From assembly GCF_041563495.1 (NCBI RefSeq), contig NZ_JBFFMZ010000011.1, positions 11,108-75,107 on the forward strand: 64,000 bases of DNA, in the 5' to 3' direction. Positions within the stretch are counted from its first letter, which is position 1; each line of letters begins with the position of its first letter. The notes under the pieces were generated by a model that searched no databases, was not told where the DNA came from, and saw only the letters and a list, made by a program, of their open reading frames with translations. Origin of the DNA: Sulfurimonas sp. GTDB taxonomy: Bacteria; Campylobacterota; Campylobacteria; Campylobacterales; Sulfurimonadaceae. The position numbers and the translations under genes are program-made. Below, piece after piece: positions 23,456 through 55,688 of this stretch.

Positions 23456-24310
23456 ATGATTAACTCTCCTATCTCTAAGATTAGATTAGAGGGGAGAGAC
23501 TTTTATGTTAAAAGAGATGATCTCATAGATCCTTTTTTAGCAGGAAACAAGTACAGAAAACTATACACTCTTTTAAAAACACCATCAAATAAACTCAGTA
23601 AAATAATCTCTTACGGCGGAACTCAGTCCAATGCTATGCTTGCAATCGCAGCTATGTGCAAAAGAAAAGGATGGAAGTTTGAATATTACACAAAACCTCT
23701 AAGTATTACGCAGAAAACTTCTAACGTAGGAAATTATTATCACTCCATAAATCTGGGAATGAAGCATATAGAAATAGAGGAAGCTTTATATAGAGATTTT
23801 ATATCTTCACTGTCATTAACGATAGACACCCAAACATTTATAATAGATCAGGGCGGGGCAGTTGAAGAGGCACAAAAAGGGTTGGAAGTTCTGGCACAAG
23901 AGATTACACAAGCAAACGTCAATGTCAAATCTTTAGCAACACCGTCCGGTACAGGAACAACAGCCCTTTTTTTGGCTCTGTCGCTTCCTGAGTTTAAAGT
24001 TTATACAACACCATGTGTAGGAGATGTAAAATATCTAAAAGAGCAGATGCAGGCTCTTCATAAGATACCGGATAATTTAGTCATACTGCAGCCTTCAAAA
24101 AAGCACCATTTTGCAAAACCGTATCCGGAGTTTTTAGAGATTTATAAAAAACTTTTGGCAAGCGGAATTGAATTTGATTTATTATATGCACCGGGCATGT
24201 GGGAAGCTCTTTTGGCTCAAACTGATGAGGAAGTACTATATATTCACAGCGGCGGTGTAAGCGGAAATGAGAGTATGCTAATAAGGTATGAGCAAAAAGG
24301 TTTTAAATAA
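23456..24310 (+). CDS. PLP-dependent ACC deaminase / D-cysteine desulfhydrase family protein
   Basis: 284 aa. RDDLIDPFLAGNKYRKL (PLP lysine motif) and a glycine loop GGVSGN. Confidence 0.7.
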   Translation: MINSPISKIRLEGRDFYVKRDDLIDPFLAGNKYRKLYTLLKTPSNKLSKIISYGGTQSNAMLAIAAMCKRKGWKFEYYTKPLSITQKTSNVGNYYHSINLGMKHIEIEEALYRDFISSLSLTIDTQTFIIDQGGAVEEAQKGLEVLAQEITQANVNVKSLATPSGTGTTALFLALSLPEFKVYTTPCVGDVKYLKEQMQALHKIPDNLVILQPSKKHHFAKPYPEFLEIYKKLLASGIEFDLLYAPGMWEALLAQTDEEVLYIHSGGVSGNESMLIRYEQKGFK

Positions 24311-24980
24311 AAATTATATTATCTTCTAAGGGTACTCTTGAAGGCTGATATGAGTTTATTTTTGCATTCTCATCTGCATAACCTATAACTACGCTGTATA
24401 ACAGTGCGAGGTTCTCTGGAATATTTAAAACATCTGCAACAACTTTTCCATACTCGGTAGTCGAACCTTGCGGACAAGTGTCTAGTCCAAACTCTTTGGC
24501 ACTCAGCATAAGACTTTGCATATATGCTCCGCAATCTATTAGCGCACCTTGAGCATTGTCTATGAGATCCTTATCTGTAAATACAAAAAATACAGTTGAA
24601 GCTCCGAACCATCTAAAATTATCATGCCACATCTGTCTTCTTTTTTCTACGTCTTTTCTATCTACTTCCATTAGGGTATAGAGTCCGACACCGGTTTCGA
24701 TGCGACGTTTTTTATAAGGGTTTTTCCATTTTAAAGGGTAGTATTGTATAAACTGGTCGTGTTCTACTCCGGAATTCATTTTCTCAATTATGGCATCTCC
24801 AATGTTTTGAAGAACATCTTTATCGCTGATGGCATATACAACCCAAGGCTGCATATTTGCCCCGCTTGGTGTCATAGCAGCCGCATTTAGGATTTTTTCT
24901 TGAATCTCTTTAGGTACAGGTTTTGGAAGATATGCTCTCTTTGACGACCGATTTGTAATAGCTTCTAAAATACTTGGCAT
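24303..24980 (-). CDS. Nitroreductase family protein
   Basis: 225 aa. N-terminal RSSKRAY motif and a PSGANMQPW segment typical of NAD(P)H nitroreductases. Confidence 0.8.
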   Translation of the reverse strand: MPSILEAITNRSSKRAYLPKPVPKEIQEKILNAAAMTPSGANMQPWVVYAISDKDVLQNIGDAIIEKMNSGVEHDQFIQYYPLKWKNPYKKRRIETGVGLYTLMEVDRKDVEKRRQMWHDNFRWFGASTVFFVFTDKDLIDNAQGALIDCGAYMQSLMLSAKEFGLDTCPQGSTTEYGKVVADVLNIPENLALLYSVVIGYADENAKINSYQPSRVPLEDNIIFI

Positions 24981-25068
24981 AATGACATTCCTAAGATTTT
25001 TTTAGATTATATGATAAATTAACTAATTTAGATATAAATTGTCTTCTAATGATGAATGACTAAACTAA

Positions 25069-25099
25069 CTTGACACAGGTCGACTCAATTAGATATAAT
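25069..25099 (+). promoter_or_regulatory. clpB promoter with overlapping HspR-type (HAIR-like) inverted repeat
   Basis: CTTGACA-N7-ACTCAAT at 25069-25089, versus the HAIR consensus CTTGAGT-N7-ACTCAAG. -35 TTGACA at 25070-75 and -10 TATAAT at 25094-99 (18-nt spacer). ATG at 25126. Confidence 0.6.
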
Positions 25100-25125
25100 A
25101 ACTACATATTAACTAAGGATATTTT

Positions 25126-27702
25126 ATGAATAACATTTTTGAAAAATTAACACACAATATGACAGAGGCGATAGAGTCTTCTGTCTCTTTAGCATTACAC
25201 AATGAAAATCAAGAGGTGGTTAGCGTACACTTTTTATGGGCACTTTTAACAAACTCAAATTCGGTGCTAAATCAGATGTTTAACAAAATGAACATCGATA
25301 AGGTGGCTATCGAGTTAGATGTAAAAAGTATGAGCGAAAAACTACCAAAGTCTTCTACAGTTTCAAAAGAAAATGTGAAACTCTCCAGAGAGTTTGTGCA
25401 GACACTTGAAAATGGTGTAGGGCTTATGACAAAAAACGGGGATTCGTTTTTAGCAGTAGACACTTACATTCTTGCAAATCTAAAGAATGAACCGTATGCC
25501 GGTATACTTAAAAAATATATTGACGTATCAGAGTTGGCTAAAAACTTAGAAGCTTCACGCGGTGGAGCTAAGATAGACTCACAAAGTTCTGATGAGACTT
25601 TGGAATCGCTGGCTAAGTATGGTATAGATTTGACTGCTGAGGCGGCTGAGGGGAAACTTTCACCTGTTATCGGGAGAGATGAAGAGATTACCCGTATGAT
25701 GCAGATACTTATACGTAAAACAAAAAACAATCCAATGCTCTTAGGTGAACCGGGAGTCGGTAAAACGGCTTTGGTTGAAGGTTTGGCACAGCGTATCAGC
25801 GATAATAAAGTACCTACTTCTCTTCAAAACAAAAGAGTTGTGGCTCTTGACATGAGCGCACTAATAGCTGGTGCTAAATATAGAGGTGAGTTTGAAGACA
25901 GACTTAAGGCTGTAATAGATGAAGTAAAACAAAGCGGGAATATAATCCTTTTTATAGATGAGATTCATACTATCGTCGGTGCCGGGGCTAGTGAAGGAAG
26001 TATGGATGCTGCAAATATTTTAAAGCCGGCGCTTGCTCGTGGTGAGCTTCATACAATCGGTGCTACAACTCTAAAAGAGTATAGAAAGTATTTTGAAAAA
26101 GATATGGCACTTCAAAGAAGGTTCTTGCCGATTAACCTGGATGAGCCGACGGTAAATCAGTCATTACAGATTTTACGCGGGATTAAAGAGCGTTTGGAGA
26201 CACACCACAATGTAACTATCACTGACAGTGCTCTTGTGGCTGCGGCAAAACTCTCTGACAGATATATCGCAGATAGATTTTTACCGGATAAAGCAATCGA
26301 CCTTATTGATGAAGCTGCGGCAGAACTTAAGATGCAGATAGAGTCAGAACCGAATGCTCTTGGCTCTGCAAAAAGAAAAAGCTCTGAGCTTCATGTTGAG
26401 AGAGAAGCTCTAAAGATGGAAAAAACACCTGCAAATGAAAAAAGACTCGGTGAAATAGAAAAAGAACTGGCAGATGTTGATGAAGAAGTCAGAGCTCTCG
26501 AATCACAATTTGCTACTGAAAAAGAGGTTTTTGAGAGAATATCAGGCATTAAAAATGATATTGAGAAAAAAAGAAAAGAAGCTCATACTGCTAAATCAAA
26601 TTCAGAATTTAATCGTGCAGCGGAGATAGAGTACGGTGAGATACCTGCTCTTTTAGAAGAAGAAAAAAAGATAAATGAACAATGGACTAAGTTACAAGAA
26701 GCGGGAACACTGCTAAAAAACAGTGTTGATGAAGAAGCTATCGCATCTATTATTTCAAGATGGACAAAGATTCCTGTAAACAAGATGCTCCAAGGAGATA
26801 AAGAGAAGATTTTAAATGTTGAAGATGAACTAAACCGTGATGTAGTCGGACAGACAAAAGCAACTCATGCAGTCTCTCGTGCCATCAAAAGAAACAAAGC
26901 AGGACTCTCGGATGCTAACACTCCTATAGGAAGCTTTCTCTTTTTAGGACCAACAGGAGTCGGTAAAACACAAACTGCCAAAACATTGGCAAAGTTCTTG
27001 TTTGACAGTGAAGATGCGATGATTCGTATAGACATGAGTGAGTATATGGAGAAACATGCGGTTTCGCGTTTAGTAGGTGCTGCTCCCGGGTATGTCGGTT
27101 ATGAAGAGGGTGGACAGCTCACAGAAGCCGTAAGAAGAAAACCTTACAGTGTAATACTTTTTGACGAAGTAGAAAAAGCACATCCGGATGTTTTTAATAT
27201 ATTACTTCAAGTTCTTGATGATGGAAGACTTACTGACAACAAAGGTGTCACGGTTGATTTTAGCAATACGATTATAATTTTAACATCTAACATCGCAAGT
27301 GATAAAATTATAAATAACCAGGCATCTGATGAGCTAAATGAGATGGTAATGGGTGAATTGAGACAGGCATTTAAACCTGAATTTTTAAATAGACTTGATG
27401 ACATAGTTATCTTTAATGCTCTTGGTCGTGAACAAATAATAGGTATAGTTGATATCTTCTTCAAAGAAATAAGCAAAAAAGTTGAGCAAAGGGATATTGA
27501 ACTAACTTTAAGCAAAGATGCAAAAGCTTACATAGCAGAAGCAGGGTTTGATCCTGTTTACGGAGCAAGACCGCTTAAACGTGCATTGTATGAGATTGTT
27601 GAGGATAGACTTGCGGAGTTGATTTTAGAAGGTAAGGTAGTTGAAGGTTCAAAAGTTTTATTTGATATTAAAGACGGTGAGATAGAAGTTAGCGTGAAGT
27701 AA
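25126..27702 (+). CDS. clpB: ATP-dependent chaperone ClpB
   Basis: 858 aa. Two AAA+ modules ([16 protein letters not shown]) separated by the long coiled-coil middle domain. Confidence 0.97.
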
Positions 27703-27727
27703 ATAAAACAGAGGTTATAATTTTGCC

Positions 27728-28081
27728 ATGAAATATTTTACGCTAATACTACTTTTGTCATACTCTCTTTTAGCTTGTACGGGTGACTGTTTAACATGTC
27801 ACCCGAAGCTTGTCCCTACGATAAATGAAGATTTAAGACATAAACCGATGCTTGGCTGTATAAAGTGTCACTCGGCAGAACCGAATAAGATGGCGGAGTG
27901 TGGAGATGACTGTTTTTCATGTCATCCGATCTCAAAAATCAATAAAGCAAATGTAAGAGAACATGATGTTATTCAAGGGTGTCGTGATTGTCACGTTGGA
28001 GCAGATGAGAAGATATTTGACAACTCAATCTCGTTTGAGCAATCAACAAAAGAGTCATTGAAAGATTTTTTAACTAAATAG
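27728..28081 (+). CDS. Small tetraheme c-type cytochrome (possible lipoprotein)
   Basis: 117 aa. Signal peptide ending LLAC. Four CxxCH motifs (CLTCH, CIKCH, CFSCH, CRDCH) arranged as an internal duplication. Confidence 0.7.
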   Translation: MKYFTLILLLSYSLLACTGDCLTCHPKLVPTINEDLRHKPMLGCIKCHSAEPNKMAECGDDCFSCHPISKINKANVREHDVIQGCRDCHVGADEKIFDNSISFEQSTKESLKDFLTK

Positions 28082-30067
28082 ATATGGAATGTGTCTCTCT
28101 ATGTCTTCCGGCTTTCCAATATAGTAACCTTGAGCATAATCCACATTTAATCTTTTAACCACATCTAAAATCTCTTTAGATGAAACAAACTCTGCTATAG
28201 TCTGAATATTCAGCTTATGAGCTAATCCGACGATAGTCTCAACCATAATTTGTGAATTTGTATCTCTGTCAATATTTGATATGAGTGAAGAATCTATCTT
28301 AATATAATCAATAGGCAGGTTTAGTGCATGTGAAAAGTTTGAATAACCGGACCCAAAGTCATCAAGAGCTATTTTAATACCATATGAGCGGACTTTTATA
28401 CAAAAGTCGTATACACGTTTATAATCTTTAAAATGTTCAGTTTCAAGAAGCTCGATTGTTAGGTGGTGATTGTATTCAAACTCATCAAATAATGAATAGA
28501 GCATCTGAATTGTTCTGTCATTTTCAATATCTTCCATAGATACGTTAAAAGAACAAGGAATGTCATACTTTGCAATAGTGTTTAGTGTATTGTTCACAAC
28601 TGCTTGAGTAAGTTTATGATAGACACGGTTTTGTTTTGCAACCTCAATAAATTTAAGCGGTGATATAACATTACCGTCATCTTCTATTAGTCTTGCAAGA
28701 GATTCATACTTAATACTTAGTGAAGAGTCTTGTATAGGAGCTATAGGTTGAAAGTGTGATGTAATTTTTTTATGCTCAAATGCATGCATTAATTTTTTAT
28801 GACACTCTATATCTTCTTTGTGAAGTTTTTCAAGCTCTTTATCGTCGTTAAATATGGATAATTGGACATTTCTTTTTTTAGCATCTTTTAATGCCATGTC
28901 GGCATAAGCTAACATTTTTCTCGATCCGCTAAAAGCTAAACCGGCACTCATCATGAAGTTAAATGTTTTATCTTCATATATAAAAGTCTCTCTTCTGTAT
29001 ATCTTTAAAATATCTTCTATTTTTTCCACAAAGTAGGTATTGTTGAGTCTGGTCGAGTCTTTTACGGCAATAACAAATTCATCGCCGCCTATATGGTAAA
29101 GAAGAGTGTTGTTATCATCGATTTGCGAAGCCAAAAAATCTGCAGTGAGTTTTAATGCGATATTACCGACTTCTTCTCCATAGACATCATTGAACTTTTG
29201 AAACTTATCCATATTTAGCAAAGCCATTTGTTTGAAATGGTAAATGTATGAGTCTTCGATAAGCTTATTTCTGTTTGGCAACCCGCTTAAAAAATGCGTA
29301 TAGATTTTTTGATGCAGCTCTTTTGATTTTTTAGCTATTTCTTCTTCTAAATCATCATTATATTTTAGAAGTTGAGACTGGAGTTTCTGCTGTTCTTTTT
29401 CTGCTTTTTCCGCACGAACAAGCTCTTTTTTAGATATGTTATGCAGCTCGAGCAGTTTATATACAGAAAACAGTATTAAAAGTGTAGCAAGTAAAAATGT
29501 ATACAATGTGTCTTTTTGACTATCGTTATTTGTATTTTTTAGTATCTGTATGTTTTGTTTTAAGTTGTCATCGACAAGTTTTACGAGTTTGCTCATATCA
29601 TCAGAGAATTTAAGCGTAATAGCATTAAATCCTACCAATGCATCTTGTATATCTTCATTCTCTTTGGTTCTTATAGCTTCTATTAATGACTCTTCAACTG
29701 CTTTATATCCTACCATTCTTCTTTTGATGATATCAATTACTTTGTCGATGCCTTTTACTTTGATTTTGTCATCTAATATAAAATTTTCCAGGTCATCAAG
29801 CGTTTCTTGGAGTTTGTTAAATGAAGTATATATATTATTAACTGAGTTGGTGTTTTTTAGTATTATAGCTTGAAGAATATTAGATTGATTTTTTTCTACT
29901 TCATGGTCAAGTTTAAAAGTCAATTTTGAGAGTCTTAACTGTTTATTCTCAATTTGATCAATCATAGCACTTGTTGAGTTAATACTTTTAGAACTAATAT
30001 ATAAAGAGAAAAATAAAAGAGCAAAGCTTATTATTAATGTAATATATATTTTGTTTTTAAAATGCAT
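28070..30067 (-). CDS. Membrane sensor GGDEF-EAL protein
   Basis: 665 aa. N-terminal TM helix, helical periplasmic region, second TM helix and a coiled coil. GGDEF domain (HIGGDEFVIAV). EAL domain (YESLARL, DDFGSGYSN, QGYYIGKP). Confidence 0.85.
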   Translation of the reverse strand: MHFKNKIYITLIISFALLFFSLYISSKSINSTSAMIDQIENKQLRLSKLTFKLDHEVEKNQSNILQAIILKNTNSVNNIYTSFNKLQETLDDLENFILDDKIKVKGIDKVIDIIKRRMVGYKAVEESLIEAIRTKENEDIQDALVGFNAITLKFSDDMSKLVKLVDDNLKQNIQILKNTNNDSQKDTLYTFLLATLLILFSVYKLLELHNISKKELVRAEKAEKEQQKLQSQLLKYNDDLEEEIAKKSKELHQKIYTHFLSGLPNRNKLIEDSYIYHFKQMALLNMDKFQKFNDVYGEEVGNIALKLTADFLASQIDDNNTLLYHIGGDEFVIAVKDSTRLNNTYFVEKIEDILKIYRRETFIYEDKTFNFMMSAGLAFSGSRKMLAYADMALKDAKKRNVQLSIFNDDKELEKLHKEDIECHKKLMHAFEHKKITSHFQPIAPIQDSSLSIKYESLARLIEDDGNVISPLKFIEVAKQNRVYHKLTQAVVNNTLNTIAKYDIPCSFNVSMEDIENDRTIQMLYSLFDEFEYNHHLTIELLETEHFKDYKRVYDFCIKVRSYGIKIALDDFGSGYSNFSHALNLPIDYIKIDSSLISNIDRDTNSQIMVETIVGLAHKLNIQTIAEFVSSKEILDVVKRLNVDYAQGYYIGKPEDIERHIPYLFS

Positions 30068-54338: not shown

Positions 54339-54373
54339 CTTGATTGACTTCCACTCAACCCTTATGATATAAT
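54339..54373 (+). promoter_or_regulatory. cbpA-hspR promoter with overlapping HspR-type (HAIR-like) inverted repeat
   Basis: CTTGATT-N7-ACTCAAC at 54339-54359 (one mismatch per half-site against CTTGAGT-N7-ACTCAAG). -35 TTGACT at 54344-49. Extended -10 TGaTATAAT at 54365-73. Confidence 0.65.
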
Positions 54374-54422: not shown

Positions 54423-55301
54423 ATGGCAAAATCATTATATGATACTCTTGAAATAAGCGAAAACGCGAGTGAGAGTGAGATTAAAAAAGCATATAGAAAA
54501 CTAGCAAGACAATATCACCCGGATGTAAATAAAGATAAGGGTGCAGAAGATAAATTTAAAGAGATTAACGCTGCTTATGAAATATTAAGCGATAAACAGA
54601 AAAAACAGCAATATGACATGCACGGTGACAGTATGTTCGGTGGGCAAAATTTCCACGATTTCTCTCGTTCACATACTAGAGGTTCTAACAGTGATTTAGA
54701 TGAAATCTTACGTCAAATGTTCTCAGGTGGCGGGGGCGGTTTTGGCGGCGGAGGCTTCGGCGGTTTTGGCGGAGGCTTCAGCCAGCAACAGCAACAACCA
54801 AACTTAGACATTGAGACAAGTGTCACTATACCATTTAGCGTATCTATTCTTGGCGGCTCACACTCTGTATCGGTGAACGGTGAAAGATTTGACATTAAAA
54901 TTCCTGCCGGAGTTAAAAGCGGTGAGAAGATGCGTGTTAAAGGAAAAGGCCACGCTCAAGGCGGAAGAGCAGGAGATCTGTTTTTAAAAATAACTGTTGC
55001 TCCAAGTCCTGAATATGTCAGAGAAGATGATGACCTTGTTAAAACTTTTGACGTTCCGCTTTACGCGGCACTATTTGGTGAAAAGATAGCTATTAAAACT
55101 CTGGAAAAAGAGATAAAGTTAAAAGTTCCAAGCAACACTAAAAACGGACAGAGATTTCGTGTTAAAGAGATGGGTGCCATGAACCGTAAAACAAAGGTTC
55201 GTGGAAATCTATACCTTGAAGCAAATATAGTCTTACCTAAAGTTGATGATTTAGATGCCGACCTAGTTGAAATCATGAAAGAAAAACTACCTAAAGAGTA
55301 A
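54423..55301 (+). CDS. cbpA: Curved-DNA-binding co-chaperone CbpA (DnaJ homologue without zinc finger)
   Basis: 292 aa. J domain (YRKLARQYHPDVNK), G/F-rich region, no CxxCxGxG repeats. Followed by hspR. Confidence 0.85.
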   Translation: MAKSLYDTLEISENASESEIKKAYRKLARQYHPDVNKDKGAEDKFKEINAAYEILSDKQKKQQYDMHGDSMFGGQNFHDFSRSHTRGSNSDLDEILRQMFSGGGGGFGGGGFGGFGGGFSQQQQQPNLDIETSVTIPFSVSILGGSHSVSVNGERFDIKIPAGVKSGEKMRVKGKGHAQGGRAGDLFLKITVAPSPEYVREDDDLVKTFDVPLYAALFGEKIAIKTLEKEIKLKVPSNTKNGQRFRVKEMGAMNRKTKVRGNLYLEANIVLPKVDDLDADLVEIMKEKLPKE

Positions 55302-55313
55302 AAGGAGCTAATT

Positions 55314-55688
55314 ATGATACATCAATATGACGAACCTGTTTATTTGATTAGTATAGTTGCTAAGATTTTGGATATTCATCCACAGACTCTTAGACAGTAT
55401 GAACGTGAGAATCTTATCTGCCCGTCGCGCTCGAACGGTCGAATAAGACTTTATTCCCAAAGAGATATAGATAAAATTAAACTTATTCTTAGATTGACAC
55501 GAGAGCTTGGAGTGAATCTGGCAGGTGTTGATATAATACTAAGACTTAAAGAGAATGTCGATGATATGGAGACAGAAATCGCAGAACTTCGTCATGAAGT
55601 AGCACGTGCCCAAAACACACACTCAGTATCTCCTGACAAAGCCTTAGTAACAAAAAAAAGTATTTATGAGATGATTATTTTCGAGTAG
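55314..55688 (+). CDS. hspR: MerR-family heat-shock repressor HspR
   Basis: 124 aa. MerR HTH (YLISIVAKILDIHPQTLRQYERENLICPSRSNGRIRLYS). cbpA-hspR operon arrangement as in Helicobacter and Campylobacter. Confidence 0.85.
   Translation: MIHQYDEPVYLISIVAKILDIHPQTLRQYERENLICPSRSNGRIRLYSQRDIDKIKLILRLTRELGVNLAGVDIILRLKENVDDMETEIAELRHEVARAQNTHSVSPDKALVTKKSIYEMIIFE

Follow-up and report, generated by a model that had tools for sequence, protein, structure and literature searches.

The window analysed here is a 64,000-nt stretch of a Sulfurimonas genome in which clpB, encoding an ATP-dependent disaggregase with the Pfam domains Clp_N, two AAA modules and ClpB_D2-small, lies divergent from a nitroreductase gene (Table 1). 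The clpB gene is preceded by a promoter that matches the sigma-70 consensus at 12 of 12 positions, the sole such match in 24300-28200, and that ends 27 nt before the gene, counted from the -10 TATAAT to the ATG at 25126. Superimposed on this promoter is a HAIR-type candidate operator (25069-25089, forward strand), CTTGACA-N7-ACTCAAT, with CAGGTCG as its spacer. Direct reading of positions 25069-25099 confirmed the original prediction that this repeat lies on the clpB -35 element and is followed by TATAAT 18 nt downstream; the right half of the repeat ends 4 nt before that TATAAT. Beyond clpB, a 117-aa multihaem cytochrome c7-like ORF (27728-28081) starts 26 nt past the stop codon, and no terminator-like hairpin was seen in the gap between the two (27703-28081 region). 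This ORF may be co-transcribed with clpB and hence share its control.

The window also holds the cbpA-hspR operon, a gene order typical of Campylobacterota. CbpA shows no zinc-finger domain among its Pfam matches. HspR scores 118.1 bits against the NCBIfam equivalog NF047375 (cut-off 105), is 96% identical to the HspR of Sulfurimonas sp. CS5, and is encoded by a single-copy gene, the only one in the genome to match NF047375. A search by sequence found no solved HspR structure, the nearest being those of GlnR/TnrA and CadR. The original prediction placed a site of the same architecture upstream of this operon. A second HAIR is indeed present there (54339-54359), but its architecture is not the same: 8 nt separate the right half from TATAAT, so that the operator stands 4 nt further from the -10 than at clpB, and the -35 element falls inside the HAIR spacer.

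The true architectural twin of the clpB site is found outside the window, at grpE-dnaK. The promoter of this operon, which has no hrcA in front, carries two HAIRs (G000:C1:355575 and 355624, together 355575-355644; L002:1318-1387) that lie 49 nt apart, start to start. The proximal one, CTTGACA-TTGTTAC-ACTCAAT, overlaps the -35 element exactly as at clpB and is followed by TGTATAAT, with a promoter spacer of 17 nt.

Table 1. Features of the clpB and cbpA-hspR loci, in window coordinates
Feature	Position	Strand	Remarks
Nitroreductase gene	24303-24980	-	Divergent, upstream of clpB
Conserved ACTAAA element	25059-25064	+	Conserved core ACTAA 25059-25063; 10 nt upstream of candidate operator
Candidate operator, left half CTTGACA	25069-25075	+	
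clpB -35, TTGACA	25070-25075	+	Identical with core of left half-site
Candidate operator, 7-nt spacer CAGGTCG	25076-25082	+	
Candidate operator, right half ACTCAAT	25083-25089	+	
clpB -10, TATAAT	25094-25099	+	18 nt after -35
clpB ribosome-binding site, AAGGA	25115-25119	+	6 nt before ATG
clpB, ATP-dependent disaggregase	25126-27702	+	TIGR03346, 1160.6 bits, full length
Second HAIR, cbpA-hspR promoter	54339-54359	+	CTTGATT-GACTTCC-ACTCAAC
cbpA -35, TTGACT	54344-54349	+	Inside HAIR spacer
cbpA-hspR extended -10, TGATATAAT	54365-54373	+	Conserved
cbpA, DnaJ-class co-chaperone	54423-55301	+	Pfam DnaJ and DnaJ_C; first gene of operon
hspR, MerR-family heat-shock repressor, 124 aa	55314-55688	+	NF047375

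The clpB site agrees with the Streptomyces consensus CTTGAGT-N7-ACTCAAG at 11 of 14 arm positions (three mismatches) and has exactly the 7-nt spacing. As an inverted repeat it is weak, true symmetry being limited to TTGA/TCAA. Moreover, its left half is indistinguishable from a plain -35 element, so that only the right half is diagnostic. The strict Streptomyces consensus proved non-discriminating and was rejected as a detector: at three mismatches 100 genome positions equal the clpB site, and the best match is intragenic. The closest canonical HAIR in the genome (G000:C2:110819-110839; L184:320-340), TTTGAGT-ATTGACT-ACTCAAG, lies outside the window and matches 13 of 14 arm positions. It sits inside a 262-aa ORF without a Pfam domain that occurs in 7 of 24 congeners at just 30-36% identity. 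This is comparable to the intragenic HspR site in Helicobacter pylori speA, which has no apparent regulatory role (PMC6102357).

Within the 64-kb window, a degenerate HAIR search allowing up to three mismatches returned 24 sites against 26 expected. Across the 2.40-Mb genome, the core CTTGA-N9-ACTCAA occurs five times, compared with a mean of 3.05 (range 0-8) in Markov-1 simulations, and enrichment by raw count was dropped on this ground. The number of HAIR motifs is by itself not above chance, and the case therefore rests on location and conservation instead. Of the five core matches, four lie between genes and read in the sense direction, 37-97 nt upstream of clpB, cbpA-hspR and grpE-dnaK (two sites), a location at chaperone operons that is far above chance.

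Two matrices were used to examine location. The first was trained only on the clpB sites of 15 other Sulfurimonas species, in order to avoid circularity. Over ~4.8 million positions, its top three matches are the grpE-dnaK proximal site (23.5), the clpB site (19.5) and the grpE-dnaK distal site (18.5). All 13 positions at ranks 4-16 fall inside ORFs, leaving the top three as the only intergenic ones among the top 16, where coding and intergenic calls come from a crude ORF map by which ~94% of the genome is coding. The second, a symmetric half-site matrix, was built from the clpB, grpE, cbpA and groES sites of relatives. Seven of 2.4 M positions reach a score of at least 16.7; clpB, cbpA and the two grpE sites account for four of these, the cbpA-hspR site being the best genome-wide, and no further intergenic position occurs among the top 27. 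Three other high scorers were set aside as chance matches: C6:75330, located within a PAS-domain gene that precedes an MCP gene, and C3:229151 and C2:187642, which precede coaBC and a ModE-like gene, respectively, and score within the noise of coding hits. A genome-wide matrix scan had been predicted to find sites at both groESL and dnaK; dnaK was found, with two sites, whereas groESL was not, the best score in the groES upstream region being -2.8.

Next, the clpB upstream regions of relatives were compared. In Sulfurimonas, 16 of 21 clpB loci carry (A)CTTGACA-N7-ACTCAA followed by TTGnTATAAT, although related genomes are not independent and such counts overstate the number of independent observations. 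One more locus is truncated by the end of its contig and shows the right half together with the -10. In the column profile of 16 species, information is confined to ACTTGACA, ACTCAA, the extended -10 (mostly TGnTATAAT in congeners) and an upstream ACTAA; both half-sites are invariant, and the 7-nt spacer and the flanks are otherwise unconstrained. The ACTAA is the sole conserved block before the operator. In the present genome it forms part of an ACTAAA element equal to the variant right half-site used elsewhere in Sulfurimonas. No acceptable left partner is found for it at N7 spacing (matrix score in that register, -2.9), and an auxiliary, low-affinity HspR contact is a possible role.

The other chaperone promoters are similarly constrained. 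The grpE proximal HAIR is present in 24/24 congeners, and the distal one in 19/24 by search pattern or 23/24 when the position 49 nt upstream is read directly; the 49-nt spacing is invariant. At cbpA, a block CTTGATTGACAT..ACTCAAC...TGATATAAT is near-invariant in 49 of 62 Sulfurimonas loci (stretch searched), with unconserved flanks. In other families of the order, clpB keeps CTTGACA-N7-GACTAAA, and its 5' UTR often holds a CIRCE element too. At L029, L032, L033, G035 (L118) and G032 (L117), a core-promoter HAIR is combined with a CIRCE-like element in the 5' UTR that in some cases overlaps the ribosome-binding site. This suggests that clpB is under dual HspR/HrcA control in other families, unlike the C. 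jejuni clpB, which is reported to be controlled by HspR only.

The gene for HspR is present in 24/24 congeners and in 14/16 other families of the order. The two HspR-less genomes of the order lack the clpB right half-site; in one of them TTGACA is retained at clpB, along with an A-rich spacer and a CIRCE element. With n=2 only, this fits a right half that is specific to HspR. Conversely, clpB lacks a HAIR in five hspR-bearing genomes, four of congeners and one of another family, and so the link between hspR and the site is not obligatory. The grpE HAIRs are intact in the four congeners. Upstream of clpB in L013, L017, L022 and L023 (G004, G001, G015 and G020), a TGCAAC-N4-GT(T/C)GCA palindrome replaces the HAIR, ~20 nt upstream of a -10, while L014, L020 and L028 have the HAIR promoter, with the palindrome forming an additional promoter-like unit downstream of it. 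The palindrome could bind an unknown regulator or fold into an RNA hairpin; between genes of the present genome, TGCAAC-N4-GTTGCA does not occur.

The independent-matrix scan, the phylogenetic footprinting and a bona fide hspR, an NF047375 equivalog, within the window together support the original prediction of an HspR operator at clpB, by which clpB would belong to an HspR regulon. Judged from these sequence data, the probability that 25069-25089 is the operator for the HspR encoded at 55314-55688, and that it controls clpB, is put at about 85%.

One alternative would be that the site is just a strong sigma-70 promoter, with ACTCAA kept by descent or by a preference of the promoter context and with no repressor involved. 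The perfect promoter match and a genome-wide motif count no higher than chance would both fit, and the 14 perfect TTGACA-N16-19-TATAAT promoters in the genome indicate that consensus -35 elements are in use elsewhere in this organism. Among those 14, however, ACTCAA lies within the promoter spacer only at clpB and grpE and is absent from the other 12. Moreover, ACTCAA is invariant at clpB though the adjoining 7-nt spacer and both flanks have fully diverged, and at three unlinked chaperone promoters a constant 9 nt separates it from CTTGA. The cbpA promoter has the hexamer in another register with respect to the -10, yet its spacing from CTTGA is preserved, so that ACTCAA is tied to CTTGA rather than to polymerase contacts. 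A fixed ACTCAA-CTTGA distance is the behaviour that would be expected of an operator, and a plain promoter appears very improbable.

It is very unlikely that the repeat serves a regulator other than HspR, for instance another MerR-family protein. The genome does contain a second, weak MerR-type match (G000:C4:203372-203599, 24.7 bits), and the four congeners that keep hspR without the clpB site would be compatible with such a regulator. Yet the motif fits the HspR sites established by experiment in Streptomyces, H. pylori and C. jejuni, it recurs on the operon of hspR itself, as an autoregulated HspR predicts, and its right half is missing from the two HspR-less genomes. That HspR itself acts here as a MerR-type activator, realigning the -35 and -10 elements by distorting the spacer instead of occluding the promoter, would be in keeping with its family and with an operator placed between and over the promoter elements. 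Promoters activated by MerR have an over-long spacer of 19-20 nt with the dyad centred in it, whereas the spacers here measure 18 nt (clpB and cbpA) and 17 nt (grpE proximal), and the dyad centre at clpB (25079) lies 5-6 nt upstream of the spacer centre. With both hexamers at consensus, activation would be unneeded, and the characterised HspRs in the papers cited are all repressors (PMC7464140, PMC6102357). Activation can thus be considered extremely unlikely.

In the favoured reading, that of an HspR operator, an HspR dimer would bind the imperfect inverted repeat CTTGACA-N7-ACTCAAT. Its left arm is the -35 hexamer and its right arm would occupy the spacer between the -35 and the -10. Since the arms cover the -35 and the spacer, bound HspR would occlude polymerase and so keep sigma-70 RNA polymerase off a clpB promoter of consensus strength. 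Transcription of clpB is predicted to start near 25106, ~7 nt past the -10; the operator would then span approximately -37 to -17. Proteotoxic or heat stress would then release HspR, leading to derepression of clpB. HspR would also control grpE-dnaK, through two sites, and its own cbpA-hspR operon, giving a three-operon regulon.

This arrangement closely resembles that of C. jejuni. In that species, footprints of purified HspR extend over +18 to -63 at Pclp, the clpB promoter, and over -20 to -65 at the cbpA promoter, both of them overlapping the core promoter region; repression of the two genes is stated to need no regulator besides HspR (PMC7464140). The two systems share the order, the target gene, the repressor family and a HAIR-like repeat over the core promoter; in addition, the cbpA-hspR operon is autoregulated in C. 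jejuni and carries a HAIR on its promoter here. Pclp has a high-affinity and a low-affinity HAIR, compared with one clear site and the upstream ACTAA half-element in the present genome. At groESL and hrcA-grpE-dnaK of C. jejuni, HspR binds further upstream and cooperates with HrcA (PMC7464140), whereas here neither HrcA nor CIRCE was found in the genome, grpE-dnaK has two core-promoter HAIRs and groESL has none. Of the known systems, C. jejuni Pclp is the closest to the clpB site. The arrangement is expected for Campylobacterota and is unsurprising, because it repeats what experiment established in C. jejuni.

Likeness to the other known systems is more partial. The original prediction counted clpB among the reported HspR targets in Helicobacter, Campylobacter and Streptomyces. 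This holds for C. jejuni (PMC7464140) and for Streptomyces albus, the clpB of which carries a HAIR (Grandvalet 1999, as cited in PMC6102357), but not for H. pylori, where the direct HspR regulon excludes clpB (PMC6102357). Streptomyces shares the 7-N7-7 geometry and an essentially identical right half, ACTCAA(G), and its HspR regulon includes clpB and dnaK. The left half differs from the Streptomyces CTTGAGT, CTTGACA being adapted to double as a -35 element, and hspR, which there lies in the dnaK operon, here follows cbpA. Each of the H. pylori operators (Pcbp, Pgro and Phrc) has a single central HAIR-like repeat, as at clpB here, and the site at Pcbp likewise overlaps the core promoter; mutating either HAIR arm abolishes HspR binding (PMC6102357). 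In H. pylori the operators extend over 70-80 bp and include flanking determinants, whereas the flanks in Sulfurimonas are little conserved apart from ACTAA.

The other known heat-shock regulators were then sought. HrcA was not found in the genome with the TIGR00331, PF01628 and NF003033 profiles, nor by tblastn with four HrcAs that other families of the order encode in hrcA-grpE-dnaK operons. PF01628 was rejected as a detector, because it found HrcA in 0/41 genomes, even in families with obvious CIRCE elements; in a six-frame search it gives false negatives for Campylobacterales HrcA. Its negative is thus unreliable, and NF003033 and tblastn were used in its place. Across genomes, NF003033 detects HrcA in 11/16 other families of the order and in 0/25 Sulfurimonas genomes. 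No CIRCE element (TTAGCACTC-N9-GAGTGCTAA, up to three substitutions) occurs in the genome. No rpoH was found either: the best TIGR02392 match, to an RpoD-sized frame of 628 aa, reaches 143.7 bits where the cut-off is 323. A sigma-32 (RpoH) promoter at clpB was ruled out on this basis.

The groESL upstream region (L001, G000:C6:103476-103700) contains neither a HAIR nor a CIRCE element. In most congeners, the groES -35 is closely preceded by a HAIR variant of the form TTTAGTC-N5-GACTAAA or TTGAGT-N7-ACTCAA. In the groES promoter region of the present genome, a direct repeat AATTTACC occurs twice, beside TATAAT.

With regard to the signal that releases HspR, C. jejuni HspR is described in PMC8533110 as not temperature-sensitive, and no HrcA was found in this genome. 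Should the Sulfurimonas HspR behave likewise, release would probably be brought about by chaperone feedback through DnaK or CbpA.

Sulfurimonas is an environmentally important genus of sulfur oxidisers in which we know of no experimental heat-shock work. The present analysis proposes a regulator and a mechanism for clpB, grpE-dnaK and cbpA-hspR in Sulfurimonas, together with a genus-specific operator consensus, CTTGA(C/T)(A/T)-N7-ACT(C/A)AA, that is usable for annotation. More tentatively, HspR may be the only dedicated heat-shock regulator in this Sulfurimonas lineage, with groESL uncoupled from every known heat-shock repressor, given that HrcA/CIRCE and RpoH are absent across the genus, as far as its genomes were searched, and that groESL has here lost the HAIR that most congeners keep. 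If so, heat would be sensed without the HrcA thermosensor, presumably via chaperone feedback on HspR, and the dual HspR/HrcA circuit of Campylobacter and Helicobacter would here be reduced to HspR alone.
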